From Schmidtea nova (taxonomy: Eukaryota), in assembly GCA_044892505.1 (NCBI GenBank), contig CM097882.1, positions 196,044,001-196,108,000 of the forward strand: DNA of 64,000 bases. Reading direction: 5' to 3'. A program made the translations under genes and the position numbers. Every line of letters begins with the position of its first letter. The first letter of the stretch is position 1. This document shows positions 5,479 to 30,400 of this stretch, one piece after another. The notes under the pieces are model-generated. The model saw only the letters and a list, made by a program, of their open reading frames with translations. It was not told the DNA's origin and ran no database searches.

Positions 5479-8129
5479 GAAGTAGATATACAGAGACATG
5501 GTGATCGTGGCAGACTTACGTCAGAAGAATTTGTGAATGTTTTTAAAGAAATTTCGACTCGTCCTGAGATTTTTTTTTTACTTATAAGGTATATAAATAT
5601 TTTTAAAAAATATTTTTAAAAATTACAATATGAAACATTACGTATTGTATAAAAATATTCATTTGTAATAAATGGCTAGTAAATAAACAAAATTGTTTAT
5701 GCGAAATATAGTAGGTAGATGTGTGGAGCCGGGAACAAAGACATTATGACTCATGCGTGGGCGGAAAAAAAAGAACAAAGACCCCCCCCCTCCCCCCCGG
5801 GGGGGGGGTAGAAATTTTTTTTTTGATGAGTCATCGATGAGTCATCGATGAGTCATCGATGAGTCATACTTTTTTTTTTTTTTGATGAGTCATCGATGAG
5901 TCATAATTTTTTTTTTTAAAAATTTTTTTCACGCCAAATTTTTTTTTTCAAAAATTTTTTTACGCGCCAAATTTTTTTTTTTCAAAAATTTTTTTCGCGC
6001 CAAATTTTTTTTTCAAAAATTTTTTTCGCGCCAAATTTTTTTTTTCAATAATTTTTTTTCGCGGCAAATTTTTTTTTCAAAAATTTTTTTTCGCACCAAA
6101 TTTTTTTTTTCAAAAATTTTTTTACAATTTTTTTTTTTCAAAAATTTTTTTTTTTTTTAGGCCAAAATTTTTTTATACTAATTTTTAAAGACGATTTTTT
6201 TTTTTTTTTAAGATAAATTATTTTTGGTTAAATTTTTTTTAAAAGACAAAATTCGAGTAATAAAAAATATTTACAACAGGTGTGCAAACAAAGACATTTT
6301 TATATGTGTGCATGTTTAATTAACTATTATTTGTCAAGTATGAAGCTTTTGCACTTCAAAACCATCACAGAAGAGGTTCTGCTTCCAGGGTTCTGATCGC
6401 AATGTTCTGCTTCCAGGGTTCTGATCGCAATGTTCTGCTTCCAGGGTTCTGATCGCAATGTTCTTCTTCCAGGGTTCTGATACTAAATGTTCTGCTACAT
6501 TTAATTATTATTTTTTCAAACTAAAGACATTGCAACACGTGTGCAAGTTAACAAAGACATTGCAATACACATGCAACATGAACAAAGACATTGCAACACA
6601 CGTGCAAGGACTTTGCAACACGCGTGCAACATGAACAAAGACATTGCAACACACATGCAAACTAAACAAAGACACATGTGTGCAACACATAAACAAAGAC
6701 ATTAAAAAAGACAAAATTTATTTATAAATATATCGTNNNNNNNNNNNNNNNNNNNNNNNNNNNNNNNNNNNNNNNNNNNNNNNNNNNNNNNNNNNNNNNN
6801 NNNNNNNNNNNNNNNNNNNNNNNNNNNNNNNNNNNNNNNNNNNNNNNNNNNNNNNNNNNNNNNNNNNNNNNNNNNNNNNNNNNNNNNNNTAATTACTTGT
6901 AANNNNNNNNNNNNNNNNNNNNNNNNNNNNNNNNNNNNNNNNNNNNNNNNNNNNNNNNNNNNNNNNNNNNNNNNNNNNNNNNNNNNNNNNNNNNNNNNNN
7001 NNNNNNNNNNNNNNNNNNNNNNNNNNNNNNNNNNNNNNNNNNNNNNNNNNNNNNNNNNNNNNNNNNNNNNNNNNNNNNNNNNNNNNNNNNNNNNNNNNNN
7101 NNNNNNNNNNNNNNNNNNNNNNNNNNNNNNNNNNNNNNNNNNNNNNNNNNNNNNNNNNNNNNNNNNNNNNNNNNNNNNNNNNNNNNNNNNNNNNNNNNNN
7201 NNNNNNNNNNNNNNNNNNNNNNNNNNNNNNNNNNNNNNNNNNNNNNNNNNNNNNNNNNNNNNNNNNNNNNNNNNNNNNNNNNNNNNNNNNNNNNNNNNNN
7301 NNNNNNNNNNNNNNNNNNNNNNNNNNNNNNNNNNNNNNNNNNNNNNNNNNNNNNNNNNNNNNNNNNNNNNNNNNNNNNNNNNNNNNNNNNNATAATATCA
7401 ACTTATAAAAAATAACTTATAAAAAGAACTTATAAAAAGAACTTATAAAAAAAGTAAAAATATTAACATATAAAAAAAAAATAAAAAAATAATAAAATAA
7501 TTCATTAGTTTTAATTGATTGCGCAATTTATTACAATCAAAATGTATTGGCCCTAAAGAGGACCATTATTTCGTTCACATTCTGTTTATTGGTTACTGAA
7601 TATTTTCATCATTTGTTTCTGTTTATTTTCCTCATTGGTTTTAGAATATTTTTTCATCATTTGTTTCGGATTATTTTTTCATCATTAGTTTCGGATTATT
7701 TTTTTCATCATTTTTTTTTTTTTTTTTTTTTTTCGGATTATTTTACATCATTTGTTTCGGATTATTTTTTCATTATTTGTTTCTGATTATTTTCATCAAC
7801 ATTTGTTTCTCTTTATTTTCATCAATTGTTTTGGATTATTTTCATCATTTGTTTCTGTAATCTTTTTTCTTCATCTGTAAGCTAAAATTTAGTAATATTT
7901 GTTTACAATCATAAATTGTGGCCCTGAAGAGGGCCGATTGTTCATTCACATATCTTTTTGGTTTTCTTTATATCTTTTTTTTTTTTTGAATTGTTCGGTT
8001 TAATCTTTTTTTTGATTTTTTATATTTCTTTTATATTTTTTGTCATTATCCTCATTGTCATCTTTATCCTCATCCGAAGTAGTCCCGAGCAGTCGGATCG
8101 TAGAAATCATAAGGGTCATCAGACGGACC

Positions 8130-8188
<59 letters not shown>

Positions 8189-11100
8189 CTGATCCATCAT
8201 CACCTACAAATATAGTGGTGTCACCCCCCAGATAGTGGCCATACGCCAAACTTTTATTTTTTTCCACCCAGTTCCTCTTATCGTCCCTACAAGATAAGGC
8301 TCTCTTATTGCTTTTTATACTAAAGAGCTGGTGATTTTTGCTCGTAATGCGGAACTGGGGGACATTATATATTTTATCGTTTAAAAAACAGTCAAGGTAA
8401 GACTGGTGTGTGAGACCTGCATCTTTCAAACAGATACCCTTGGCTTTCATGCAGGCCTCGTCTCCCATAAGACTATAGCACTTAGGTCTTAAGAAAACCC
8501 ACTCATCATACAGTAGACCCTTATTCTCATCCTTAAATTTGCCAATCACAGAATCAAGGGTCCTACTATACAATGCATGATGAGTGTCGTAATTAGAGGT
8601 ATCCAAAAGCCTATCGTCAATCATTGCGGTCAAAAGAGTGTTCAAGTCAAGATTTTTGATTTCCAAGAAGAAGGAATCAGTATCCCCAGCAACGATGTTA
8701 ATTTCGCAGTTGAAGTCGTTACGATATTTTTGTAACTCTTCATACTGCAGCTGGTACATACGAAGTTTGGATAAATCCAGTACGGTTTGTCCAATGTAAC
8801 TGGGTCTATCCAAACATACTGATTCCTTCTGAAGCAATACGGAGATGAGGTCATTGTCGATTTTTGTAGTTTTTTTGAAATTAGCTTTTGACGTGTAAGT
8901 CAGCAGTTTTTGTGCCGAGTTACACAGTCGTAAATTAATTCTTTTTTTTAAATTCTCTACGGTTTTGCCGTAGAGACTATTATTTAATAATTTATAAAAG
9001 TTCTTATCGAGCTTATTTGTAGATGCAGCTCGTAAGTCTGTGTTTATTTTTATATAATTATAAAAGATTTTATTTTGTGTAAATTTAATAGCGCGATGTA
9101 TGTGCGTTACCTTCACACCAATTTGAATAAATAGTTGCAGAAGCCGCCAATGAAGAACATAATTCTTCTTTGGAAGATGCGTTAGCAACAGCTTCTCAAC
9201 CTTGGATCCCGGTGCACACATCTTTTCAGCGGCAACTGGAAGATCATCCAGTTTGTCGTGAATCGATGCCGGAATTTCCAAATCCACTTCTATGGTGTAA
9301 CCATAATGAAGTGTATCGAGATTTTCCGATGTGCACTCACAAACGATGTTATTTAATAATTGGTCATCAGTGACCCACTCAAAATTACCACAAGGAAGGG
9401 GTTGGCTTAAGGCCCACCCATATAAATTATTTATGTCAATATATAGTAATGCGGTATCCGGGCTCGTCTTGACATAATGTTTATTGACAAACGTTAGTCC
9501 GCCGCGAATACCGCCCTCGAAAAAGTTATACATCTCCATATCGGTGAGGAGCTCGATAGGAGAGTCAAGAGTTAATAAAGCGGAACTCCACGACATGCCG
9601 GGAATTCCGAGAAAATTTAAAGGCTCAAGCCTGTTATGGTTAATTGATTTTAATCGAAATTGCTGAAAATAATCAGCTAACAAAAACACATCCAATTTTA
9701 GATAAACCATCATGTAATCGTACAGTGATGTACATGATGTTTCTTGCCATATTTTATGGGCAGCAGCATACTCGACAGCAGTTATATCTTTCCATTTCGG
9801 GGGTAAACACAAGGTTGATTTTAAAACTTCTAAAGAAGTGGCAGCGTCATAAGGAAAAATGCCCTTGGCAGTGACTATAGTGCCTCGAAATTCAGATTGT
9901 GTTAATGGTAAGCTAGTGAGTGTTTTTACTGCATTATTTAGAGACTCACTTACAAACTGATAAGAGTCAATAAATTTTACGGTCAGGCTATCGATGTACG
10001 CGAAAAGACTTAAAAACTTTTCACTAGTCAATGGAATACAACTAATATTCCAACTGTTATATTTGGAAAGACCATATTTTAAAATATGGTGTAAATCGTA
10101 ACCCTTCAAGTTGTGAAAGATTACGGGCAAAGAGTGTCGTATTTGCCGGGACTTGTTACATTCTGAGCAGGCTGCTCCAATATAAAGACCGGTGAAATGG
10201 TCGTGATCCCTAACAGGCGCAACTAAAAGTTTTTTGCATAAATAACAATTAGTGCTATTATCAAATTGTCGCTGTTGGGTCGCAGTGATAGTCATACGTT
10301 TTTGATAATTTTTATAATAATAGGGTGTCACTATATACCGACTGATTGACTCAATTTCTCTTAAGAATTGATCAACACCGTCTAACCCTACAAAAGATTT
10401 GTAAATTCTCACCCCAGAAAAGTTGTTAATGAGAAGGAGACCTGCGGCAATAGGAAGATGTTTTTGGTGGTGAACAGTGTCTTTCGGTAATATTGCCTCG
10501 AAATCTGCATATATTACGAAAGGAGGAGTTACTGTTTTCTTCCAATCAGTAAACTCCAAAAATTTATTTTTGGGTAAGGTGTACAGTGTAGTACCCAACT
10601 GATTTTTGTTACAAAGACCCTTATGACGATTAAAGGCTTCGTCATTCCTAAACCCATTCAAGCAACGAGGGCACCATTGACTACAAATCCTAACTGGGGT
10701 GATTGTGCTGTTTCGGCAATTCAAAAAGCGATTCAGATCGGTAATCGCAAGATAATGAAAATTATCTTTTTTCTCCAAAAGAAGCAAATTTATGGGAATA
10801 GCCCCGACTACTTTACTACGGTAGACTATATCGATAAAGGGATGTTTAAGAACGACATTATCATCATTGTCATTGTCGCTTACATCTATTTGGGCCTTTT
10901 CGTCATATGTAAGGACATTAATACTATAGCCACTGTTTTGTCTCTCAAATTTTTTGATGTTAACTAATTTCATGGGCATGTCGGTGGGGTCAAAAACAAG
11001 TTGGGAAAGATCATAAGAAGTAGTCCTATGCCTGTATTGGCGTTCAATACTATTATATTTAACTACTGCCAAGAAACTGTAAAGAAAGCAATAGGTGTCA

Positions 11101-11686
11101 TTATTTTGGACATTTACAAGGCAACTTAAATTTCTTAAAGTATTCGGCGTCTGGATATAACTGCTGCCGCTCAATCGACTAATTTCCGAAAATTTAGTGA
11201 CTAAAAAACTAATATATTCTATTTTAGAGATTGTCCAATTACTCCCCTTTTCGTTAATCTGGACAATCTTCTCATTTAAATTAGTGACACCTTCCTCAAT
11301 AAAGGTATCACTCCACTCTCTGGCAGAATTTGAGATGACGAAAGATTGTAATTGATCATCTTTCTCAAATTCTACCTTGAGACAAAATTGTATTTTAACT
11401 GATTTTAAATTAATAATATATGATTTTAATTTATCTACTAATATATCAGGTACAGAGACCGTTTTTAATAATAAGTTAGATACATCCATTTTTATAATAA
11501 AATGGGTATCGTTCAAGTCGGAAGTAACTTCAACAATACCCATTCCAATTTGATTATTATTATTATTTAAAATATTAACATAATCGTCAAATTCATCATC
11601 ATTGACGATTATGTCAGATATAATATTCATATTACTACTTTTATTATAAATAAGATCATCCTCATCATCACTGATGAGGGATATAA

Positions 11687-11753
<67 letters not shown>

Positions 11754-12097
11754 ATTAGAAATATTATTTTCATCTTCATCATCGCTGATGTCGATGATGA
11801 TCAGTTTTTTAGGAACTGAATCCGTTAATGTTGTATTTTTACGTTTATTATTTAGTTTTTGTAAAGTATTATTATTTTGTAGAATATTATTTTGTAGATT
11901 ATTATGATTAAGTGTATTATTTAGATTAAGTGTATTATTATTATTATTATTATTATTATTTGTATTTTGTAAATTATTTGTATTTTGTAAATTATTTGTA
12001 TTTTGGAAATTATTATTTATATTTGTATTATTTTGTAAAATATTTCTATTATTTGTATTTGGATTTTGTAAATTATTATTATTATTATTATTAATGG

Positions 12098-12148
<51 letters not shown>

Positions 12149-15100
12149 GGTTGTTATTAGTAATATAATTTTTATATAAAGAATTAAAAAGAGATTTTTT
12201 TGAAGGTTGGAATTGGGAAAGATGAGTCCTATGAGAAAGGTAAAATTCCTTATAAGATTTAACTTCAATAATTTTACATTTTGGGCAGAGGAGGTGGGTG
12301 ACACCATTATATTTATAGGTATAGTACTTTTCCATAATGACATGACAGTCATTATGGAAACGACTATTACAAAAATTGGTATATGTTAAACCTGAATATA
12401 TGGAAAAAATTAAAATATAATTTAAATAATAATTATAATAATTATAAAAAATAATATCATCATCAATATTCTTTTTATTATTATTAATATAAAATAATTC
12501 CTAATTAATATAAAAGTTTTCATCATTATTTCGTCATATTAGCCTTCTTTTTGGACATTAAACAAAAAAAAATATTATCATCTAAATCTGTCTTGTTTAT
12601 CTTGGTAATTTACCTTTTAACTTATTAAGTAATTGTTTTAAATATGTTACTTAATAAGTTAAAAGGTAAATTAATATAAAAATTAATATAAAAATAATAT
12701 AAAATTCAATATAAAATTCAATATAAAAATAATATAAAATTCAATATAAAATTCAATATCAAAATTCAATATCAAAATATTTTTCATTATAACGTTAATT
12801 ATTCATAAAAAATAAAATCTTCATCATTTCATATTATTATTGTTCATCATTATTTCTTCATCATTCTTTGTCATAATAATAATAATTCAGCTTCTTCATT
12901 TCGTCATAACAAATTCTGCATTTCATATAATTATTTCTTCATAATATTCTTGGTCATAATAATTCATCTTATTCATTTCATAATAACAAATTCAACATAA
13001 TATCCTTTTAACTTATTAAGTAATTGTTTTAAATATTTTACTTAATAAGTTAAAAGGTAAATTACTATAAAAATAATATAAAAATAATATAAAATTCAAT
13101 ATAAAAAAAAAAAAAAAATCAATATAAAATATTTTTTCATTATAACGTTAATTATTCATAAAAAATAAAATCTTCATTATTTCATATTATTGTTCATCAT
13201 TATTTCTTCATATTATTCTTTGTCATAATATTAATTCTTCTTCTTCTTTATTTCATCGTAACAAATTCTGCATTTCATATAATTATTTCTTATGTCACTT
13301 CATTTCATAATAACATCATAACAAATTAAACATAATAATTTCATTATTTTTAAAAGTTATTATTATTATATTAAAAGATTTAATTAAAAAATATTATTAT
13401 TATTATTATTATTATATAAATAAATAAGAATAAATTACATTTAGAGTTTTTAAAACTCTGTCCATTCAGTTTCATGGCATCATCGTTACTCGGGACATCA
13501 TTCATAATAATCGGTTCATTTAAAATCGTCTCATCGGCATCCATATCTACAGCATTCATATTTTCTAAAAAATAATTTAACAATAATGAAAATTAAAATA
13601 TTATTAATTTTACTGATAATTCTTTTCGTATTTCCAAGTCCACTTGAGGTTCCGGCCATATTGATCGATAAATTAACACCTAAAAAAAAAAAAGATTAAT
13701 ATAATTAAATAAAAAAATAATAATTTTACTGTTAAGGCCTCCCGCGATCCGCTTCGATTTATTAATATTTGATAAATTATTCATATTTAGAAAATTTCTT
13801 GAAAATTTTTGATAGATTTAAAATTTGAAAGTAAAAAGTGACGAAATAATTCAAGTATATACTATATAAAGGTGAATTTTATTAACCGACCAATCAGAAT
13901 CGAGATAGGATAGGCAAATACATGCACACATACTGCACACATAATATATCTTTGTTTATGTGTGTTTGACGTCACGATATTGCTTTGTATCGTGACAAAG
14001 ACATGACATGTGCTTATCACGCATTGATCACGCACTGGTCATGCCTTTGTGATGAAAATAATAATATTTATAATTAATAATAATAAAAATAATAATTAAT
14101 AAAAATAATAATTAATAAAAATAATAAAATAATAAAATACATTTATTGCTTTAAATAATCAACAACAGCAGACAAGCACCCTTTATAGGCACACATGCAA
14201 TGATCTTTATAGGGACATGAAATGTTTTCAGGAACATATTCAACATCTTTATAATTATATTTAATTAATCTTAATTTGGGGAAATACTTCTTCAAAACAT
14301 ACATCTTTTCATTATCGGTAACATAGAAAATAGCTCCTTTATCTGTAATATCATCCATTATACATTTTGGGCAAAAATAATCTTGTCCTTCAAACGATTC
14401 TATACGATCAGGCCATAAAGATAAATCACTGTATATATAATACTGAGGTGTGAAAATATTATTGACATTCATAATACATAATTCCTTAATTGTTGTTCCA
14501 CCCATTTCATTATATCCATAAAAATCGATAAAATAACAAGACATTTTTTCAAATAAAGTTTATTAAAATAAATTGTTTATAACATTGATTTCAACCATGC
14601 AAGGCAATGTTCACCACAAGTGATTGTTAAAGGATGCTGATACCGAATTCTATTATACACAATAGGTTTACCGATAGTTTGTAGTTTTCGAACAAGTAAA
14701 TTCGGATAATAATATCCAAAGGGATCAAATACATGTATTCGATCTGGTTTCACATAAACTGCAATCCAATGTTCACCGCCCAACGTAGATGTCTGAGTAT
14801 TTACAATGATGGCTTGATTCATTTTCAAATAAGGTATTTTATCGAGAGGAAATACTCCAATAAATTGATTTCCCAATAGTTTTTTACCTTGTTGTAATAC
14901 CTGAAAAGAACTATTTCAAAATAAATAACTAATCAATTAAAAATCTTACTCCATAATAATAATAATAAAAATAATAACTTTGATCATTTATACTGTTTAA
15001 GCTTTGCTCAAAATACAAATGTTTAAGCTCAAACCAATAATGTTTGAGCTCTGCTCAAACCAGTATTGTTCGATTGGCAGTAATTTGAACTTCATTTTCA

Positions 15101-18100
15101 AAAACTCCATAAATAACTACATGAACCGGTTCATCAATAGGTTTGGCAAACTTTATATCGAGTCGTAAATTTCCGTTTTGAGGGATTTGGCTTTGATTCA
15201 AATCAAAATCGGGAGCCAGAACAAATGTAAAGAATGGATAACTAGATTTAAATTCATCTAGACCAATACCACAATTCAAGTTTTTATCCAAATAACCTAG
15301 ATTTCGGACAAGACTTTGCATATATGATGCACTAAAATTATCATTTTCAAAATCCTGGGTATATGTTTCACGATAATCGGTATTTTTCGACAATGTTAAT
15401 GAAGTCACATTAAAATGTTTGAATGTTGATGTTGACTCGGTATAAGACCCATTATATTGATTTTCAGATTGAAAAGCCACAAGAATGAAATTAGGCATTC
15501 GTCTATCTCCAAATATTTGCTCCTTGTAAAATGACGATGCCCCTTTACCGATAGCAAACGATACGATTTCTTTAGATTTTAATGGATAAATTGCATGTTT
15601 TTTATTTAAACCAATTTGATGACCGGCCAATACTGAAGAATCACATCGAACTCTTCTTACCATTAATTTTGCATCAACTATTTGGATAACTGGTTTCCCA
15701 GCTGCAGATTTCAATGATAATGCAGAATCAGATCGCTTCAATCTAATATGTACATTAACTCCGGGAAGTAAGTATTTAGGTTGATCCATAAAATCCAGTT
15801 GTAATGACGAACACATGTTGAAAAGTTTAGATCCCTTTATCCATTTTTTCCGATCGTCGGCTGAACCATATCCCATTGGAGTAAGACACGTTTCTTTAGC
15901 ATCATTCGTATAATTTAAAATAGTTTCGATTATTGCCTTGTGTGCATATGTATTGTTTCCACCCTCGATTTTTATATTATTAAATCCGAGAATTACATCT
16001 TTGAAAAGTGTATGAAACAAATAATTATTGGGAACTACATCACTCACATCAGCTAGAGCTTTTTTATCTTTATCTACAACCTTGATTGTAACGGACAATA
16101 ATGTATCGTTCAAATCCAAATATTCGGTTTGAGAACCATTAATGTAAAATTCAACATCATTTCTACTATCTGTAATTGAATTCATTGGAAACACATCTTC
16201 AAACGCCCCATATTCAATAACTGCTTGAGGTGATGGTCGATCAAAAAGACATAATTCAGATTTACCGCAAATCATTCTTCAAATATAGTTCCATGACCTT
16301 TCATTCGTTTGTTTATACGTTTTCGTTTACGTCTTGGTCCTACCGGTACAGATTCCGGTTCCTTATTTTTTGTAAACATACTTGTAATTGTAGGAAGCAT
16401 TTGTGTTACAGCAGGTATAGCTTTATTAACTGCGGCCAAAGCATTGGTTTTCAATGACGGTAATATTTTATTATCTTTCATGAGAACGTCCTTGGCAGTA
16501 TTCATTCCGAAATTACCTAGTCGTCTAAGAATTGGAAGTGCAAATCTCCCAATAGTTTTCAACCAACCTGATCCGTACTGTTTACCGACAAAATACGGTA
16601 ATTCGCCACCAGTTTGGCTATCACTGTACATTGAAACTATATCGGGATTACTCATCGTTTTTTCGAAAATGTAGAGTTAAGTGAGTTTTTGAATCTTTTG
16701 GAAATTTTATAAATCTTCCACTGTCATCCCGGATATTTATTTCTATATTGTTTATACAAGATGTTGAAACAGGTAAATACATTGGATTTTCAACTTGTAT
16801 TTGAACAATTTCATCTGGCTCGTATTTTTCAATCCATACCGATTTTAGTAAAGGAACCAAGGAATCACCAACAATAATGGGTTCGATAATGTTTGTATAC
16901 ACGAATAATTGCTGATGAAGTTTAGATATTTTCGGTTGACGAACACCAGAAATGATATTTTTATCGGTAAATGTATCCTTATCTAATCCCAATGTATTGA
17001 CCAAGTATTTATCAAATCTGACTTTATTGATTTTTTCTTTGAGTTTGAATTTGAACAATTTATTTAATTCGACAACTGTAAAAATATCCGAACAATTATC
17101 GCTAATATATTTCTGTAATTCATCTAGATGCGTTATATACAACTCCTCCTTGAAGGTGAATACATGTCCTTCTTGACGATCATACGATATAGTAAAAGTA
17201 ATTATTTCTTCATCGTTACTGGCCAAGTTTTGCATAACTTTGAATTCACATTCTTCTTCATTACATTTTATTGTCAGTTTATTACTTCCCATTCGTTTTG
17301 CTACATCAAGATCGTTAAATGTAATTGTATAAGGAACAACATTACACGTGAGAATTATTTTTCCACTTCGTTGCCACATTTCGATATCCGGATCAATTGT
17401 GTGAGTTGGAACATTCAGATGACCACTATTATTATATATCGAGAAAAATGCATTTGCAACAATTGTTTTCGTAATATAGTAATATATTTTACAATAACTA
17501 TAAAATGGAAAAGGTTGGTAAACAAATGTAAAATCCATTAGAGCAACTTCCCAATTTCCGTTTAAATAAATTGGATTAGGTAAATTCACCATGAATTTAC
17601 TTGCGGTATTATCCGGATGGATATTCGGACAACTATTGCTCGGTAAAATAGTGTAAAAATTCACTTTACTAGATTTTTTGACGAGATCCATGATGGTTCT
17701 TTATATCCATGCCATTTAACATAGTATTGTTTATCCTTACCCACCATTTTAGTCTTCAAAATCTTTTGAATTCTAAATATCGTAGGTTTAGGAATAACTT
17801 GTAATTCTTGTTCGTAGAATTTGCCGCTGATTATATTGTTATCAGAGTCACGAATAGTATACATGACAGGATTCTGCACTGTGTTGACTTTCGATATTTG
17901 ATATACCTCATCACTCCAATTATTATCAAAATTTTTAACGAATGGCGATGTACTAATCTTGCTAATTCGAACATGATCATCAACTTTATATTTTGGTTTC
18001 TTTACTTTCACTTCACTCACAATATTTTCAGTATCAACTACTTCTGCCGGTTTCCTGCCATTTATACCCCGATGAGCACTATGATTATAACTATGAATCA

Positions 18101-21100
18101 ATTGAGGTAAGACATTAATCCAGGTTTTATTGCCTTTAAAAACAAAGTATTTTTTCAATCGATCACGCAAAGTTCGATTAAATCTCTCGACATGAGCGGC
18201 TTTGAATTGTGAGAATACCGAATAATGATTTATTCCCTTGATTACTTCCTTGACTTTACTGTTGTAAAATTCCTTTCCTAAAAAATATTAAATTTATAAA
18301 TTTAAATTAAAATTTACCCAAATCCGTTTGTAAATTAGTTGGCCGATCCTTTTTCATCATTGTCTTGATAGCAATTGCCATATCATTAGCAGATTTTGAT
18401 TTTACTCCAATTGCTCGAGCAAATCTACTGTAAACATCAATACACGTTAAAATATACTTGTACCCCTTGTTAATTTTGGAATACGGAATCATTTCCATCA
18501 AGTCCATTTGCCACAAATCATTGATTCTATATGTTTTATATGCTCGAGTTGGAAATCGTTTCAACATCGGCTTGTTTAGACTGTATGCAAGTTGCCCCGA
18601 TAACCAACTTTGTGTCTGTTGTTTCGACTTCTGTGCTTTTTTCCTTAGCTTTTCGACTCCACCGAAACCGGCGTCGTCTTTTGGGTTCGTCCAGATCTTC
18701 TCCATTGCAACAAGAAGATTTAAAGTTTAAATTTAAATTAGGTAATGATTGACCCATTGTTTATGACTTTCTTTTTCCCAATAAACCAGCACCTCCCAAT
18801 AAAGATAATGCTAATGGTAACAATGCTGCAATAAAACCACCTTGTTGTTTATATATTACTTTGCGCATAAGTTTTTTATTTTTTGAGTTTACTAGCGACA
18901 ACAATGGTTTTTTATGTTTGTTCAAAACACGGCGATTAGATGGAGTTAGATTTATTTTACCTCGCACGACTTTAATTAAAATAGAGAGTAAATCATCGAT
19001 GACGTAACTAGGAAACGATTGAAGAATACCCATTCTTCTAACGGAAGGGGCTTTAAGTAATGCATTAAAAAACGGTAAACTACGATGATGTGTTTGTTTA
19101 GCATTAGATTTCAAATTATTTTTGGGAATATTATCCATAAGTATTTTCTTGGATTTCTTTCTTGATTTCTTTATAGATTTCTTTGTAAATAGTTTCTTTG
19201 TTTTCTTTCCCGCTTTCTTTGTTCTAGCCTTTATCAATGGCTCAAACTTTACTCGAGATTTCATTAACATGATTACGATTGTAAACAGAATTAACTTTGT
19301 TTATAAACCATGGCTCCTTCAGGGTTAAAAATATCAGTTCTAACGCGTAAATCATCACTGCATTGTTGAGTAAAATCCAGGAAAATATATCCATGAGGAG
19401 ATTTTGTAGCATCTTGAAAGGCTTCAATCAAAAAGTTACGATTAGAAGGATAAGCTTGTCTTGCCAGAAAATCAATAACTGTTGCATCTCTAGGATTTTT
19501 AAAAACAACAAGATATTGAACATTTAAATTACGAGTTCGATGACTACCGCCCTGATGAAATAAATTCTGAGTTATAAAAATAACAGTAACACCTTTATGT
19601 CTACTGATTTTCGTAAATAAGTTATTGAAATCCTTTTCTTTATTTGCTTCTTGATACAAGTCGTCAATGATAATCACATCACCATGTTTTAATCTAGATG
19701 ACCAGTTTTTATCGAAACCTTTAATGATTGTCATTTTTATTTTACAAAACTGATCTTGTGTCATTCCACTTTCGTCGTCAGCTCCCCTATGCCAATAAAT
19801 ATTATTAAATTTTGACTTGAATAATTTCGATTGCAATAATTTACAAACAAATAAAGTTTTTCCACTCCCGCTCGGACCAACAATTTGAAACACTGCATCA
19901 TTTCTTAATTCCATATTTAAAACTTATATTTTGTTAATATTATTGTTTATATTTGTTTTAAATACCTGTTCTCAAAGTAATTATTTCATTTAAAAATATT
20001 TTCAGTAATGATTAGAAACATTAATTACAAAGGTAAGACAGATGTATCACACATGAAATTTCCAAATGGAAAACCCCAGCAAATTGTAGATCGAAGTGGG
20101 AAATACCCAATAATATACTTTAAATCAGGAAGATATAGAATAATGGGATGCAGAGAATTTATTAGTGACGAACAAGTTGAGTTTTACGATTTAAAGATAC
20201 AATCGATAACTGTAACTGCGGATTTAGGATTTATTTGTAATTTGAATGAATTATCGAAATTAATACCGTGTGTTTACGAGCCAGAATTATTTCCAGCTTT
20301 GAGATATATCAAATATAATCCCATGTGTGTAAATATATTTACAAGCGGGAAATTAGTCATATTAGGATTAAAAAACAAAGACTATAGTACTATAGTTGAT
20401 GATATTATTTACGATATAAAATCAATTATAGAAGATAAAGCCTTTGTTGATTTCATACTAACATGTGACTCATGACTGCAATATCGATGCATTAGAAATG
20501 CACGATTCTGATTGGCTCTGTGTGTATCGATAGAATAAAGACATGTTGTGCATGCTTCATTCTGATTGGTTCATTATGTGTGTTTCAAATCATGTGTGTT
20601 TCTTTGATATATATACTATGAACAATCTCACATAGTTTATATTCACAATTATGTCGATGACCCAAACTTTAATTAAAAGCCGTAAGGATTTTAATTTTTA
20701 ATTTTTCATATTTTATATTATTATTATTTTAGATAAATTAATGAACGTAATATATCGCAAATTGGAGGAGCTGTTCCCGAACCTGATGCCTGCTCTGGTC
20801 TACACGGCTCCTGAGATGTTCCCGTACAAGATTATGGTCTTGACGGGAATCGACATCAATCAGATTGTGCTCGATCATATGACGAGCCAGAATACGGATC
20901 TCCCAATGGTACCCGAGCACATTATGTGCGCTTATCAATGCGGGAGCTGCGTGGAAAGAATCCGGCAGTTTAATATCTGGGTTTTGAGGAATTCCCTCAA
21001 ACTCTATGATGTTCAACAAATGGACAAAATCGAGGAGGAGGAGCAGGAGGACCAAATCAAGGAAACATGGCCCAACTCAACTCCGGAGCCGACTGATGAA

Positions 21101-21245
21101 ACAACAACAACAACAACAGAATTGGAAGCACCAACTCTAGATGGTCCGTTTCCATCCGATGAATCCAATGATTGTATGGAATCGCCACAATCACCGGATT
21201 GTGCAGAATGCCATCGACAAGCTGATGGTGGTGATAATGAAGAAG

Positions 21246-21278
<33 letters not shown>

Positions 21279-24200
21279 AAGAAAACGCAGAACAATGATT
21301 TGATGTGTGTTTAATGTATTTAGTTTTTTTTTCATTTAGTTTTTAGTTTTGTAATTTTAGTTTTGTCATTTTAGCTTAATACAAGTTTATTATTCATTTT
21401 AGTTTTCATTTATTTAAATATTAATAGTTTATCTTTTATTAAATCATTTTTTTTTTTTATTTTTTTTTTTTAATAGTAGTAGTAGTAGTAGTAGTATTTT
21501 ATTAACTGTATATAAAAAAAGTAAATAGTTTTTATTAAATAATAATTAGTAAGAAATTGTTTTATGTAAGATAATTATAATTATAATAATAATAATAATT
21601 ACGAAATAAACAAATAAGTAAATACATTAGTAGCAGAACATTGCGAACAGAACCCTGGACGTAGAACTTATTCTGTGATTGTTTTTATATGAAAAAGCTT
21701 CATAATAAATAATTAAAACATGCATGCATACAACAAAGACATTGCAATACATGTGCATACTGTGTGCAAAACAAATGCATGAATACGATTGGACAAAGAC
21801 ATCCAGTCATCAGTATAAATACAAAGACATTTTATAAAATATTGTCACTATTTACAACATGCAATCACGAAAACAAAATTTGGATATAAGCGAAGAAAAA
21901 ATATATCAGACTGAGGTAAAACCAGTTCAGATGTACTATGACAGCCGACTTTATTTTTTGGTTAATGAAATACCGTATCGATTATCATATCCGGTAAAGT
22001 TAACAAAATCTTTATATGATAGTCTTGCTGTAATTATTGCCAAGGAAGATATTATCGCATTAAATCGAATATTTTCAAAGATGAATGTTAATTTGACATG
22101 TAAAGAAACAATGTACATCAATAACAGAAAAACTCGGTTTCATGATGCTTTTCAAACTATTGATTTCATGGATCAAGAACACTGGTTCGTTACAGTTATT
22201 ATTCAAGGGTACAAGATTGATAAAAAAGATGTTGTTACTCCGATTTGGAGAGTTGACAATGCAAGATACGCATAATTGTTTTTTAATAAATATTTTAGTA
22301 TGAACAAATTTAGTTTTTATATTAGTTTTTGTTTTTAAAATGAAATTAATTATAGTTATTTTATTATTATTATGTGTTGACAATACTGAAGGAGAACAAG
22401 CTTTGGAGGATTGTCAATCATCCCATCCGTTTCGAAAACAAGATAGTACTTGCGCGAGTTATAACGATATATGTCTTTACTCAAACATTGAATGCAATCA
22501 AATAAAATTACAATGTAATCAATGTCCTTCCAAAAATAATGTGATTAATAAAGATATTGAAAAAATGATTGACAAAATAATGATGAAAATAGTTGAACGA
22601 TTAAAATGTATAAATCAAACTATTGTTAAAAAAGAATATGAAGTCAGATATCAAAATCAAACAGTTGAAAACGAAAAAACATCAATTGTTTTACATTATA
22701 TAAGTTTATTTATATTAATAATTATACTGATGTTATCGGCATCCATACGGCTGGAGAAGATTTCAAATATTCCAAAGAATAATATTCCGACAAATACTAG
22801 TATTCCGATGAATAATATTACAATGAATAATATTCCGATGAATAATATTCCGAGTAACAATTCAGATGTAAATAATTTTGAAACTAAATTTTGTACACGT
22901 ACACAACGATATATTTATAAATAAATTTTGTCTTTTTTAATGTCTTTGTTTATGTGTTGCACGCATGTGTCTTTGTTTAGTTTGCATGTGTGTTGCAATG
23001 TCTTTGTTCATGTTGCACGCGTGTTGCAAAGTCCTTGCACGTGTGTTGCAATGTCTTTGTTCATGTTGCATGTGTATTGCAATGTCTTTGTTAACTTGCA
23101 CACGTGTTGCAATGTCTTTAGTTTGAAAAAATAATAATTAAATGTAGCAGAACATTTAGTATCAGAACCCTGGAAGAAGAACATTGCGATCAGAACCCTG
23201 GAAGCAGAACATTGCGATCAGAACCCTGGAAGCAGAACATTGCGATCAGAACCCTGGAAGAAGAACATTGCGATCAGAACCCTGGAAGCAGAACATTGCG
23301 ATCAGAACCCTGGAAGCAGAACATTGCGATCAGAACCCTGGAAGCAGAACCTCTTCTGTGATGGTTTTGAAGTGCAAAAGCTTCATACTTGACAAATAAT
23401 AGTTAATTAAACATGCACACATATAAAAATGTCTTTGTTTGCACACCTGTTGTAAATATTTTTTATTACTCGAATTTTGTCTTTTAAAAAAAATTTAACC
23501 AAAAATAATTTATCTTAAAAAAAAAAAAAAATCGTCTTTAAAAATTAGTATAAAAAAATTTTGGCCTAAAAAAAAAAAAAATTTTTGAAAAAAAAAAATT
23601 GTAAAAAAATTTTTGAAAAAAAAAATTTGGTGCGAAAAAAAATTTTTGAAAAAAAAATTTGCCGCGAAAAAAAATTATTGAAAAAAAAAATTTGGCGCGA
23701 AAAAAATTTTTGAAAAAAAAATTTGGCGCGAAAAAAATTTTTGAAAAAAAAAAATTTGGCGCGAAAAAAAATTTTTGAAAAAAAAAATTTGGCGTGAAAA
23801 AAATTTTTAAAAAAAAAAATTATGACTCATCGATGACTCATCGATGACTCATCAAAAAAAAAAAAAAGTATGACTCATCGATGACTCATCGATGACTCAT
23901 CGATGACTCATCGATGACTCATCAAAAAAAAAAATTTTTCTACCCCCTCCCCCCGGGGGGAGGGGGGGGTCTTTGTTCTTTTTTTTCCGCCCACGCATGA
24001 GTCATAATGTCTTTGTTCCCGGCTCCACACATCTACCTACTAAATATAATAAATCAATAAATTTCATATTAATAATTGTATGATTATAGATCACGAACAT
24101 TTTTTGGTTGTTAGGTACACGATATTTTAGCATAGCCTTTATACACAGTTGATACATTAAAATTAAAAAAATTGATCTATAGTCATACAATGCTTATTGT

Positions 24201-24437: not shown

Positions 24438-27400
24438 TGGGCACACATTAAATATATTAACCCTAAAGATAGGTAATGAACAAAAAACGTTAAATATATA
24501 TACTTAGTTAACAATTTTAAGTAATTTAACTTCATTAATTCATGAATTTTTCATTATAAAATTAAAGAAATACCAACATGAAGTCGTTTTATAAAAGTAA
24601 TTGAGAAAGTTTTTAAGTATATGAGTAGCTAGAAGGGTGCTCTTTGGCTCAAGACGGAATGACTCATCGATAAGGCAACGAGTCATTATGTTGATTCATA
24701 CATCTGATAGAAGGTGAGTCAGGCTACAAGATTATGGGTCATAAATTTTGTATGACTTATGGTCTTTGTTCTATAAAGCGCAAAAATGGTCCTGTCAAAA
24801 ATATCGATGACTCATCATTTTTATAACAAAGAACTTTTCAAAAAATCTTTATCTTTTTAGTTCCCCATGAAATCTTTTAATTTTTCAGAAATCGAATTAA
24901 AAAGTTTCTTTGTATGAGTCATGTATTTAGTATGACTTATCATTTTTCGAAAATCTTTTGAAGTCCGTTTAACAAAGACCTTTTTTCAAAATTTTTCTAT
25001 GTTGAAACAAATTCATGACTCATACAAAGAAAACTTTTATTCGATTTTTGGAAGAATTCAAAAATTTCACGGTGGGGGCACTAAAAAATTTTTTTTGAAA
25101 AGTTCTTTTTTTATAAAAATGATGAGTCATCCATATTATTACCACTTTTACACTTTATAGAACAAAGATCATGAGTCATACGGTCGGCTATGACGCATCA
25201 TCTTATAGCCTGACTCACCTTCGTCGATGAGTCATTTCGTCTTTAGCCAAAGAGCACTCTTCTCACTACTTATATGAATTTTGTTGGGCCGCATTAAAAG
25301 CCGTCCTGGGCCGCGGGATGGACACGCTTGTTTTAAATGATCTTATCAGTTGTTTAATTTGTATTATTTTGCAATGTCTTTTTACGAACTCACACATTTT
25401 AAAAGTTAAGAACTAGTTTCATATTATAAATACCAACGGAATGAGATAAAGTAAAAAACGAATTTTGTTTGTCGTATAATTTTATTAAATAACAATAAAA
25501 AAATTTCATCGATATAAATAATTTTGACACTTAAATTGTTGGATTGCGGAACCTTCTGTAATGTGGATACGGAATTATTCAGTGTTTCAGCAATAGTAAT
25601 TCACTATTGAAATATCTTATGAAAAATATGTACTAAAAAATTTAACGAAAAAATTCTATCAGTGGCACACTTTTTTATAAATTGTTCCGCAGGTTGAGTG
25701 TTAATGTAAAATACAGTATGAATTAAATATTATACTATTAATTTAATTAATGTTTATATTTATTTATTATAGAATCAGGCGCATGTATCTAAACTAGCAT
25801 AGCTCAGCCAATTACACCCTCTTTTAAAATATGCAATAAAACTGTCATGTATATTTATATGGTAACATTTTCGTACTATTTTATGTCTTTAAGTCAGTTT
25901 TTATATGGTCTTAAAAATCAATTGGAAGCAAATATGAAATTGAGTGCTTTGGAAATAGATTTTATCTTATTGTAGTTTAATTAGTTAAGCCCTCTAAATT
26001 TAGTGTTTTTTATTTTATATATTTATAAGTAACATGCAGCGGCGTATTTACCTGTATGCAGATTAGGCATTTGCCTAGGGCCTCGGATTTATAAGGGCCT
26101 CCAAAATACAAAAAAAAATTATAATTTTTTTTTTAAAAAAAAACAATAGTCGTAGCATTTTACATTTTAAACTTTAACAGTTTTAAAATTTTCAGAGTTT
26201 AAAACCTTTTGGGGCCTCAATTTCAATTTACAAAATAAAATTAGTAGGCCTTTACAAAATAAAATATATGATATACAAAATATTGCTTGGATGTTGCTTT
26301 TTTCCTTTTTGAATATGTTCAAATTCTTTTACTTATAAGAATTTATAAGAAAAAATAACAAATAGGATAAAAGCAACATCCAAGCAAGGTTTGAATTTTT
26401 ATATTTTGAATATAATATATTTTATTTTGTAAAGGCCTACTAATTTTATTTTATAAATTGAATTTGAGGCCCCAAAAGGTTTTAAACTCTGAAAATTTTT
26501 AAACTGTTAAAGCTTAAAATGTAAACTCTGAAAAATTAAAAAGAAAAATAATAAAATTATTTTTAAAAAAAAAACAATAGTCGTATCATTTCATATGCAA
26601 TTTCATTTCATTTATTGTTTGAATTTTGTTACGTTAACATCAAATTTTCGTTGCATGATTTTGAATATTGCAAATAAATATTTGTACGTATTGATTATTA
26701 GCATAATTTTGATTTTAGATTGATATTTTCCGAATAACCAACAGTTTTTTTTAAAACTACCAAAACCAATCGTTGTTGCTTCTTGCTTTCGTCATTTAAT
26801 ATTTCATAATTCACTCGACAATTATTCCATTTTATTTTTTTAAAAAAATATTGACAATTATACGTTAAAATGAAAAGAACTTTCGAGTCTGGCGCACAAA
26901 AACGATTGCGAAAAAAAATTCAATTGAAGGAAAACGAAAAGCAAAGAAACTCCCTTGCTAAATTTATGTCTTTGGATAAAAATGTTCCATCTACCAGTAC
27001 TGCGGCTGCAGATAAAACTGTTTCACTACCAGTAATAGCTGATAGCGATGTTAATCTTTCGATAAACAGTCTTTGTGCAGAAGTAGGTGCAAGTGATAAT
27101 TGCGTTGCCACTACCAATGACATTGAGGTTGAAATTGAGAGTGAAGTAGTAAGTACAAATACTTATCCTATCTTTACTGACATTGGTTTATGGCCAAAAA
27201 TAATTACTAATGATGTGATTAAACATTGTATCTGTATAAAACCCAAAAATGTGGGAGATTTAGAGTCTTCTAAAAAATGTTATAAAGATAACAATGATCA
27301 ACAAATATACCGAAAATTAAATGATGTACATTTTTATACGACTAAAATAAACGGAGTCCAAGAGCTAAGAGAATGGTTGATTTATTCTGAAACAACGAAA

Positions 27401-30400
27401 TCTGTTTATTGCTTTGCTTGTAAACTATTTAGTAAAAAATCTAATGTTCTAGTTTCAGGATATTCAGATTAGAAAAATATTGTAGACGTTTTGAAAAGAC
27501 ATGATGAGTCGAAAGAACATAAAAGTTGTATGTGTGCTTATGTTCGTCGTGCTAAAATAAGTGGTCGCATCGATTCCAAACTTTTACAGGTAATAGAAAA
27601 AGAGTCAATTTATTGGCGAGAGGTATTAAAACGAGTCGTTGCTACAGTTAAACTTTTGGGAAGTTTGGGTTTAGGGTTCAGAGGACATGATAATTCTTCC
27701 AAAGGCAATTTTTTCAGCTGTATTGAATATTTGGCTGAATTTGATGACTTCTTAAAGGTTCACTTAGAAAAATACAGTAATTGCGGAAGTGGGCATGTTA
27801 ATTATTTATCTAAAAGCACGTGTGATGAATTTATAGAACTTATGGGCAAAACCGTACAAAAATCCATTGTTGATGAAATAAACCAAGCTAACTATTTTGC
27901 TCTTATAGTTGATTCCACGCCTGATGCAAGCCATACTGACCAGTTAACTATTATTATCAGGTACGTAGATCTGGATCAAAAAATTCAAGAAAGGTTCATA
28001 TGTTTTATTTCGATTGAACATCATGATGCAACATATTTAGAAAAAACGATTTTGTCCGCCTTGTCAGAATTAGGGTTGAACATTAATAATTGCCGGGGAC
28101 AAACGTATGATAATGCTGCGAACATGTCAGGCATTTATAACGGTCTCCTAGCCAAAATTAAATGTTATAACAAAAATGCTGAATTTGTACCTTGCGCAGG
28201 ACATTCTTTAAATGTAGTTGGAAATACAGCAGCAGATTGTTCTTCTAAAGCTATTAGATTCTTTGATTTTATTCAAAATTTATTTGTTTTTTTTCCTCTT
28301 CGACAAAGAGATGGGATCAGCTAAGGAATACTGATCAAAAATTAAGCCATAGTTTAAAACGTATATGCGACACTCGATGGTCATCTAGAGCTGAAGCTGT
28401 ATTAACTGTAAGAATGAATTTTTCTTCCATAAAAACTGTTCTTGGTGAAATTTGTATTAACCCATCTGAAAAACCCATAGCAAAAATTGAGGCGAAAAAA
28501 TTACATAGCAGTTTTGAAGATTTAGAGACGGCTCTGTTATTGATTTTTTGGAATACGCTATTGCAAAGAATCAATGCGTCCTTAACAATAAGTCCTTACA
28601 AAGCAAAGAATGTAACTTACAAAAAGGAACATATTTATTGAAATCTTTATCAGAATTCATACTTATTATTCGAACTAATGATGCATATTTTCACCAAATG
28701 GAAAAAGAAGCAATCGAATTATCTGGTAGTACAGAATACTCAACAGCAAAAAATCGAAACAGGAAAAGAAAAATACTATTCGATGAAACTTCTGATAATG
28801 ACACAATTTTATGTGGGAAAGAACTATTCAAAGTTGAAACATTTTACTCAATTTGTGATACTTTAAACTCTGAAATAAAAAGAAGGTCTGTAGTTTATGA
28901 CAAGGTATTAGAAAGTTTCTAATATTTGTTGATTTAGATTTGCCTGAAGAAAAATTTGCTCAGTGTGTATCAAATTTAGCTGAACACTATAAAGATGACA
29001 TAAATCAATTAGTATTCAAAGATGAGGTTGAACAGTTCCTTTATTTTGTAAAATTGGAAAAATTATTAACACTTCCTGAAATGTATGCATCAATTCTGGA
29101 AGGTTTATCATCAACATTTCCAAACGTTGAAATAATCCTAAAAATTTTTTTAACAATCCCAATTGCAAATGCGTCTGGTGAGAGATAATTTAGCATTCTT
29201 AAGCGGGTCAAAAACTATCTAAGGACGTCACTTGGCCAAAAAAAACTAAATCACTTAGCTATCATGGCAATTGAAAGCGATCTAGACAAAAAAATTAACT
29301 ATGACTCCTTAATTGATAATTTTGCAAATAATAAATCACGAAAAAAAATATTATAAATGGGCTTTCTTTGGTCAAAATTTAGAAACTAAGCCATGAAAAA
29401 AAAATATTTATTATTTAAAAAAAAAATCTTAGAGGGGCCACAATAATTGATTTTTGCCTTGGGCCTCAATTTGTTAATATCCGCCTCTGGTAACACGGGA
29501 TATCGGGGTATATCAAATATGACTCCCAGTTTTCCTACTTAAAAATCATAAACCTGTGAAAAACTTTAATTAATATTTTTCATTGAAAATAAAGTTGGAA
29601 GTGGTAAAACAAAATTCAAATATAAAATTATGGATTTGTCTACTTTGTTAAAATTATATTCTAATCAAAAGTATATATTTCTAATAACGTATAATGAAAC
29701 CGAAGAAGCTGTCTTAGAATTGCATTGCAAAAAGTCATATAAAAAAAAAAAGTCATATATAAAAAAAAAGTCATATATATCTATAATATTTATGAAAATT
29801 TCTCTATTTCATTTTTTAGGCAACTACAACATAGTTTTTTTTTCATTCTTTACATAATTACGATAAAACAATCAAAATAATTGCGTTTTTGTAATAATAG
29901 TAAATTAAAATTTTGGTTTCGGAGTAATTATATATTTTAGATATTCAAACAACGGTGAATTTCTGAGTATTGAAGATCTATTACTATTTCTTGAAGCAGA
30001 ACAAGGAGTTAGTTTTGAGTAATTTTGAATAAATTACATTTATTATATTTTTTAATAATTATGTTTGTTATTTAATATTATTTATTGTTTTTATAATTAG
30101 TTGTTAGATCTGCTCACTTCGAACACTTTTCTATTTGTTCCATTCATATTTTAGTTAATGGAATAAATGCTACTATGTTTGCAAGTTACAGATTATCTGT
30201 AGGACCTTGCATATTCAAGTGATGTGGTATTCAGTGTACCAGGTATGGTATTTAACAAAGATCTTTCGACTTTGTTTTATACTTACTTGTCGCAGAGAGA
30301 AATTTTTGCGTCTCCTGCATAGCACTAACGAGAGCCAAAAGCTCGAAACTAGTCTGCTATTGGGGATTTGCACTGGGTATCACAAAGTTTTACTTGTTAA

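Follow-up and report, generated by a model that had tools for sequence, protein, structure and literature searches.

We analyzed a 64,000-nucleotide stretch of Schmidtea nova DNA (assembly GCA_044892505.1, contig CM097882.1, positions 196,044,001 to 196,108,000; hereafter the window, whose own numbering is used throughout). The window contains an 18,332-bp Maverick/Polinton element (5710..24041), and each of its terminal inverted repeats (TIRs) carries a tandem array of E2F-type sites. We see an even chance that the end repeat is a distal enhancer or silencer whose family-specific candidate E2F module ties transcription of the element to the host cell cycle.

The left array occupies 5905..6151 on the forward strand and consists of 7.8 copies of a 32-bp unit. 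Tandem-repeat and alignment analysis placed its mirror, with three exact 12-mers, at 23574..23821 on the reverse strand. The unit reads T7-8 CGCGCC A3 T9-11 C A5, with a period of 31-33 bp. Six E2F-type cores are found between 5926 and 6100 in the left TIR: TTTTCACGCCAAA at 5926, TTTACGCGCCAAA at 5959, TTTTCGCGCCAAA at 5992 and 6023, TTTTCGCGGCAAA at 6056 and TTTTCGCACCAAA at 6088. The exact 12-mer TTTCGCGCCAAA makes up two of the six left cores and three of the six right cores and is found nowhere else in the 64 kb. One left core has an A before the core and still reads TTTGGCGC on the other strand, and another is a CGCGGC variant with TTTGCCGC on the other strand. Four of the six cores in each TIR match TTTSSCGC on at least one strand. 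The array begins about 195 bp from the end of the element and its cores lie 217-391 bp from that end. These data bear out an earlier note on this DNA, which had reported such an array in both TIRs. Its count of about six units also stands, and its spacing of about 31 bp gives way to measured intervals of 33, 33, 31, 33 and 32 bp (mean 32.4 bp). The phasing over three helical turns that it had proposed is only approximate, with a drift of 154 degrees over the array at 10.5 bp per turn. The surroundings, described there as CG-poor, are poor in G+C (about 29%) but not depleted of CpG, with observed/expected ratios of 0.88-1.20 in five segments.

A motif scan against shuffled controls, suggested in the earlier note as a check, found six TTTSSCGC matches in the left TIR and seven in the right, against shuffle means of 0.23 and 0.22; neither count was reached in any of 2000 dinucleotide shuffles, which overstates significance because the copies descend from one amplified unit and represent one event. 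Counted as that single event, a TTTSSCGSSAAA-type word has an expectation of 3.8e-5 per 32 bp under a third-order Markov model built on the remainder of the window, a figure uncorrected for the many motifs that could have been noticed. There is no occurrence of TTTSGCGSSAAA in the 60,129 bases outside the TIRs. Given the dinucleotides of the unit itself, the word is not rare: TTTSSCGC arises in 31% of shuffles and the 12-mer type in 10%.

The array core is a classical-type candidate E2F site, not the strongest. The DHFR and adenovirus E2 promoter sites, to which the earlier note had likened the cores, have the sequences given there, for which a literature search found no printed confirmation. 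The core fits TTSSCGC, the common E2F motif (PMC5716687 Table 1), and the unit has A/T flanks on both sides. E2Fs prefer flanks of 3-5 A/T pairs and read them through the minor groove (PMC4686757). Among cores, E2F/DP prefers GGCGGG to both the canonical GCGCGC and the homodimer site GGCGCC (PMC4686757).

The array also pairs GC cores with a hexamer. Six spacers contain TTCAAA, the reverse of TTTGAA, the hexamer of the CHR (a homology region of cell-cycle genes). This pairing of an E2F-type GC core with a TTTGAA-type hexamer is like that of mammalian E2F/CLE and CDE/CHR sites bound by DREAM (PMC5716687, PMC4176359). CHR elements read TTTGAA, TTTAAA or TTCGAA and lie close to the transcription start (PMC4176359). 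TTCAAA stands 6 nt (one orientation) or 10-11 nt (the other) from the core, where E2F/CLE and CDE/CHR follow a 4-nt rule. The hexamer is not enriched TIR-wide (its count was reached in 427 of 2000 shuffles, and 125 copies occur in 44.6 kb of flank), and a reading built chiefly on CHR was rejected for that reason. Contact of DREAM/MuvB through the TTCAAA spacers is a weak possibility.

The element has TIRs with AG...CT ends (AGTAG...CTACT), a 6-bp target-site duplication, a family B DNA polymerase (PolB) of protein-primed type, an integrase, a protease and an ATPase, and it is a Maverick/Polinton. Its termini read AGTAGGTAG at the start and CTACCTACT at the finish, and the duplication AAATAT stands on the forward strand at 5704..5709 and 24042..24047. 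The left TIR (5710..6736, forward) measures at least 1027 bp, its inner end hidden by an N run, and the right TIR (22906..24041, reverse) at least 1136 bp. The two differ by three substitutions plus indels, chiefly in the copy number of an 11-bp and a 28-bp array. The genes at both ends point outward: the polymerase reads toward the left TIR, and an open reading frame (ORF) of 194 aa (22340..22924, forward) is directed at the right TIR and ends inside it. Thus neither TIR is the proximal promoter of a neighboring gene, and the arrays, lying downstream of their neighbors, would have to act at a distance: ORF 21859 starts about 1.7 kb away and the polymerase about 6 kb. ORF 21859 (138 aa, 21859..22275, forward) has relatives in the related locus L008 and in an older remnant within the window.

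The E2F-type array has company. Seven TGASTCA words, mostly in 11-bp GATGAGTCATC repeats, precede it at 5745..5903, with nine mirror sites at 23822..24004; we take TGASTCA to be AP-1-like. A 28-bp tandem array follows at 6376..6496 on the forward strand (4.3 copies, and 7.3 copies at 23146-23350), and one related copy of its unit lies upstream of ORF 21859. Tandem-repeat analysis and word counts further delimit an array of AACAAAGAC, TGCAACA and CACGTG words at 6523..6703 (forward). The TGASTCA counts (seven left, nine right) and the eight AACAAAGAC words per TIR were each reached in none of 2000 shuffles; CACGTG is present twice. Presumably AACAAAGAC is HMG-box-like and CACGTG an E-box. Each TIR contains four separate tandem arrays, and the copy number of two of them varies from one TIR to the other. 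Folding of 5710-6160 into hairpins gives a z of -6.8 because of the palindromic AP-1 repeats and the C/G and A/T runs, and an Rfam search returned no match. At 5790-5811 a C-run and a G-run make up a palindrome that folds into a stable hairpin, some 80-100 bp in from the terminus, and one of the three TIR substitutions falls here.

Inside the element, a non-coding stretch upstream of ORF 21859 (21632..21758), likely a promoter, is homologous to the inner TIR, with 76% identity over 123 columns (E 2e-20). It carries three AAAGACAY words against 0.06 expected, a number reached in none of 2000 shuffles. One such word each is found upstream of the polymerase and of a 185-aa ORF; those counts were reached in 213 and 60 of 2000 shuffles and are not or barely significant. 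Three gene-upstream stretches (13860-14010, 20476-20600 and 21620-21858) share AAAGACAY with the TIR, significantly so only upstream of ORF 21859. Some of them also bear CCAAT- and TATA-like words, and one bears TGACGTCA.

A second source of evidence is a diverged, gene-less foldback of 647 bp (24624..25270, no strand assigned), 580 bp to the right of the main element. It has AGTAG...CTACT ends, arms that are 74-89% complementary and its own 6-bp duplication, TATATG, and is likely a non-autonomous Maverick-type element. TGASTCA occurs in it nine times, four and five per arm (none of 5000 shuffles each), and AACAAAGA four times, two per arm (6 and 3 of 5000 shuffles); the arms mirror each other and hence are not independent. 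Both words stand here in dispersed form, which makes slippage alone an insufficient explanation. A regulatory role for the TIR therefore has independent support from sequence: its inner part matches the stretch upstream of ORF 21859, and the gene-less element keeps TGASTCA and AACAAAGA as dispersed words.

The window also holds a decayed second Maverick-like remnant (47028-53296) with broken polymerase pieces and two inverted copies of the ORF 21859 homologue. Its right end (about 53205-53296) resembles the first 30-odd bases of the main TIR and contains one TGASTCA, and its partner arm carries TTTTTCGCAC, which does not fit the E2F consensus. The remnant seems to carry an inserted transposase-like frame near 51674-52550, judged by eye and from a weak Pfam match.

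Relatives were gathered by polymerase-based scans as 91 loci totaling 590,825 bases, comprising the best 80 of 485 candidates, confirmed, from one scan and 11 of 39 from another. Ends were inspected for 27 of the 91; L076 has one certain terminus, L087 and L085 have probable ones, and none of those captured belongs to a close relative. The L076 end contains CCTTTGACC twice, and the end of L087 (10491-10655), a contig end that is probably a terminal repeat, contains TGACGTCA four times and AAATGGCG twice; each count was reached in none of 2000 shuffles, for motifs picked after looking. We take the L076 words to be DR1-like, and TGACGTCA and AAATGGCG of L087 to be CRE-like and YY1-like. At 1-170 and 14741-15051, L076 has complete Maverick ends (AGTAGT). 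They contain TGACCTTTGACC-type words, set in 41-bp repeats, and telomere-like TTAGGG runs. The looser TTSSCGS occurs three times within 250 bp in two of the 91 loci, both coding by eye, and one locus has a single palindromic word. An A/T-run match to the array in L023 was rejected, as it lies outside any inverted repeat.

Several observations weigh against a host E2F module. The two outer left cores (CACGCC and CGCACC) have drifted off TTTSSCGC, as would those of any minisatellite undergoing turnover. The SELEX-preferred E2F/DP core is GGCGGG, against GGCGCG here, and binding of E2F8 to a GCGCGCC core was below detection (PMC4686757). TTSSCGC is absent from the gene-less element and from the end of the older remnant; together with L076 and L087, all four other ends examined are without the E2F word. 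Nor does TTSSCGC occur in any of the four internal non-coding stretches tested, including that upstream of the polymerase, and none of the 91 relative loci, most of them without ends, has an E2F array. The motifs, the AP-1-, HMG-box-, DR1-, CRE- and YY1-like words among them, were chosen after looking. No conserved LxCxE protein was found in the open frames of the element.

Much of this would also be expected if the array were a neutral minisatellite, in which a chance E2F-like unit was amplified by slippage in a repeat-prone TIR and any binding of E2F may be inconsequential. Four tandem arrays in one TIR, two of them varying in copy number between the TIRs, the decay of the outer units and related ends without the E2F word all fit this explanation. 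So does the finding that E2F motifs in plant transposons are often bound and that few lie near promoters (review PMC7329337). A paper that this review cites for RBR1 (PMC6268010) is listed as retracted and is given no weight here. Set against it are the rarity by chance of a 12-bp word of this type and the neighboring words, which another element and the stretch upstream of an internal gene retain without tandem repetition. We consider a neutral origin unlikely.

In the viral contigs of IMG/VR, neither a paired 12-mer pattern nor the AP-1 tandem pattern was found. An 18-mer from the unit occurs there as single copies in 23 contigs, with no arrays, and the three of these with genes listed look like bacterial viruses. 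A single such word is therefore no proof of an E2F site. In L093, L098, L100, L105 and L112, apparently bacterial viruses, the 18-mer falls between genes, in a short stretch that is conserved, and in L093 and L098 the flanking frames, named by eye, look thymidylate-synthase-like and epimerase-like. A search of sequencing runs gave five matching runs in two studies, none of them RNA among those listed.

Another explanation is that the unit serves as a signal of DNA shape or for a protein of the element, with the likeness to E2F sites incidental; the bacterial hosts of the viruses just mentioned are without E2F. A/T tracts on either side of a short CG core would exclude nucleosomes or bend the DNA, or the units would dock an element-encoded protein such as a packaging factor or the TBP-like protein. 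The unit is mostly runs of T and A, and the element encodes both an A32-like ATPase and a TBP-like protein. The packaging repeats of adenovirus share the sub-terminal region with E2F sites (PMC4726734). TTTT(G/CG)AAA recurs in the gene-less element, three and two times per arm (8 and 144 of 5000 shuffles). However, the phasing is loose, the unit by eye lacks the adenovirus packaging word TTTG-N8-CG, and such an array is missing from the gene-less element, whose target duplication is its own. The matches in viral contigs, being single-copy, may moreover be due to chance. We find this account improbable.

The earlier note had also suggested that the array licenses replication, and an origin-helper element would recruit E2F/Myb-MuvB-type complexes to start DNA synthesis. 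The array is symmetrical and present in both ends, as such an element might be. Host factors at the inverted terminal repeats (ITRs) of adenovirus help replication. One host factor, Sp1, binds these ITRs (PMC4726734). The element nevertheless brings its own polymerase of protein-primed type (PF03175), and the terminal motif, some 195 bp outside the array, is where priming would be expected (PMC8097293); licensing is unlikely on both counts. The gene-less element, too, has Maverick-type ends and a 6-bp duplication without the array. We therefore think this role very improbable. The other role proposed there, an S-phase-responsive enhancer, is plausible from the sequence, with the amendment that such sites may equally repress, as in the adenovirus E1A enhancer (PMC4726734).

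Under the cell-cycle reading that we favor, one E2F-type site would have been amplified by slippage or unequal exchange and then kept. Host E2F/DP would bind the central CGCGCC cores; free E2F/DP would activate in cycling cells, and E2F bound by Rb/DREAM would repress in resting cells. The TTCAAA spacers might, weakly, add MuvB contacts, and stress- and lineage-type factors may act alongside at the other words of the TIR. Expression of the polymerase and other genes would then coincide with the presence of the S-phase supplies of the host. We also considered a circuit with an Rb-binding LxCxE protein like the adintovirus Oncoid or E1A proteins and rejected it, since no conserved LXCXE plus CK2 site was found. 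The single LTCKE of ORF 21859 lacks an acidic tail and is not conserved in L008, and the only other [LI]xCxE words in the open frames are ITCGE in the protease and IKCNE in the putative minor capsid protein.

A broader speculation treats the end repeats of Mavericks as fast-evolving, modular cassettes, whose sites for host transcription factors would determine the time and place at which the elements switch on. The cassette would combine E2F/DREAM, AP-1 and HMG-box words here, nuclear-receptor-like words in L076 and CRE/YY1-like words in L087. We offer this tentatively and regard it as rather doubtful. If true, this family acquired a cell-cycle switch like that of adenovirus, and with every insertion two E2F/AP-1 enhancers are added to the host genome.

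Parts of this arrangement are known already, namely E2F motifs in plant transposons and, in adenovirus, E2F sites close to the terminus of the linear viral genome. In adenovirus 5 (Ad5), the E1A enhancer contains a conserved E2F site (nt 270-290) that recruits Rb/p107, represses E1A and supports persistence, so that binding of E2F/Rb weighs persistence against replication (PMC4726734). The element is like Ad5, which belongs to the same broad virus lineage, in having an E2F-type site that lies a few hundred bases in from the terminus of a linear genome. In Ad5 the sites number two, both are at the same end, and they lie upstream of E1A and outside the ITR. In the present element as many as four fitting cores are lined up in tandem within each of the two TIRs, each array lying downstream of its nearest gene, and the search for a conserved E1A-like LxCxE protein gave none. 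MITEs (miniature transposable elements with inverted repeats) of Brassicaceae carry amplified E2F motifs that are bound by E2F in vivo, and a gene-regulating role is doubted for most of these sites (PMC5950925, PMC7329337). The element resembles them as a DNA transposon bearing E2F motifs, predicted here from sequence. Unlike the non-coding, cut-and-paste MITEs of plants, it is a self-synthesizing, virus-like element.

Among animal Mavericks/Polintons (adintoviruses; PMC8097293, PMC8502044), the element is typical in its TIRs, 6-bp duplication, AG...CT ends, length within 12-25 kb, PolB, integrase, protease and ATPase, and its PolB fits the pfam03175 'Alpha' class of PMC8502044. It differs from them in its end motif (AGTAGG, not (AGT)2), in the intron-like stretches of its integrase and protease, in its TBP-like gene and in its outward end genes. 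The sections of these two papers that we drew on describe no motif arrays in TIRs, and no account of arrays of E2F or other transcription-factor sites in Maverick TIRs was found in the open-access main texts searched.

The gene content of the element is as follows. The polymerase (8070..12335, reverse) is an open frame of 1421 aa of the organellar/viral, protein-primed family B type; its PF03175 match (E 1.9e-27) came from the C-terminal 727 aa, and the full-length protein missed PF03175. The adenovirus-type protease gene (14577..14954, reverse; PF00770 above cut-off) has a short intron-like stretch near its start. It is followed by a putative major capsid protein of 406 aa (15055..16275, reverse), whose identity is suggested by its size and position, and by a putative minor capsid protein of 347 aa (16648..17691, reverse), named from its position. 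Both candidates are of fitting size and place, and the former has 147 homologues. Neither has a sequence match in the profile library or the PDB; against IMG/VR, none of three candidates for the capsid-candidate protein and none of ten for the capsid alignment was confirmed. The rve integrase gene (17741..18705, reverse; PF00665 above cut-off) lies in two pieces parted by a short intron-like stretch, and beyond it are an A32-like packaging ATPase (19291..19914, reverse; PF04665 above cut-off) and a TBP-like protein of 155 aa (20008..20475, forward). The latter has 33 homologues with 34-74% identity and is present also in the relatives L008, L023, L047 and L069. An atlas search with ORF 21859 gave no match at or above 0.9, and residues 1-100 of the acidic 185-aa ORF had no homologues among 10 candidates.

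The stretches that split the integrase (near 18300) and the protease (near 14930) are AT-rich, bounded by GT...AG, about 40 nt long and resemble spliceosomal introns. In L008 the integrase is uninterrupted at that position and the protease has a similar stretch at the same place. Intact vertebrate Mavericks have been reported to be intronless (PMC8097293). The intron-like stretches and the TBP-like gene would fit transcription in the host nucleus. The genes of L008 are arranged differently: its polymerase is turned toward the capsid block, and its TBP-like gene shares the strand of the ATPase; judged from these sequences, gene order is plastic in the group. An AT-rich array of 23-26 bp lies downstream of the polymerase (7586-7878), and several hundred bases upstream of it are tandemly duplicated (12600-13340). 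The host DNA is AT-rich and transposon-rich. The flanks of the element hold, in the regions 155-1267, 26870-28324 and 42214-46484, hAT-related frames (PF05699, PF14291) and an LTR (long terminal repeat) retrotransposon (RVT_1, RNase H, protease), the latter accompanied by short direct repeats at 42128 and 46523.

The activation of Mavericks is still little understood, and no particles of theirs have yet been observed (PMC8097293). A defined E2F/AP-1 cassette would give a handle on the cell state that activates them, be it cycling, stem or wounded cells, and on where transcripts are to be expected. Should E2F binding fail, the array would be an ordinary minisatellite. If the cell-cycle reading is true, the array would be a parallel, in a distant relative, to the E2F/Rb persistence switch of adenovirus, and the elements would be a route by which cell-cycle enhancers may spread in host genomes.

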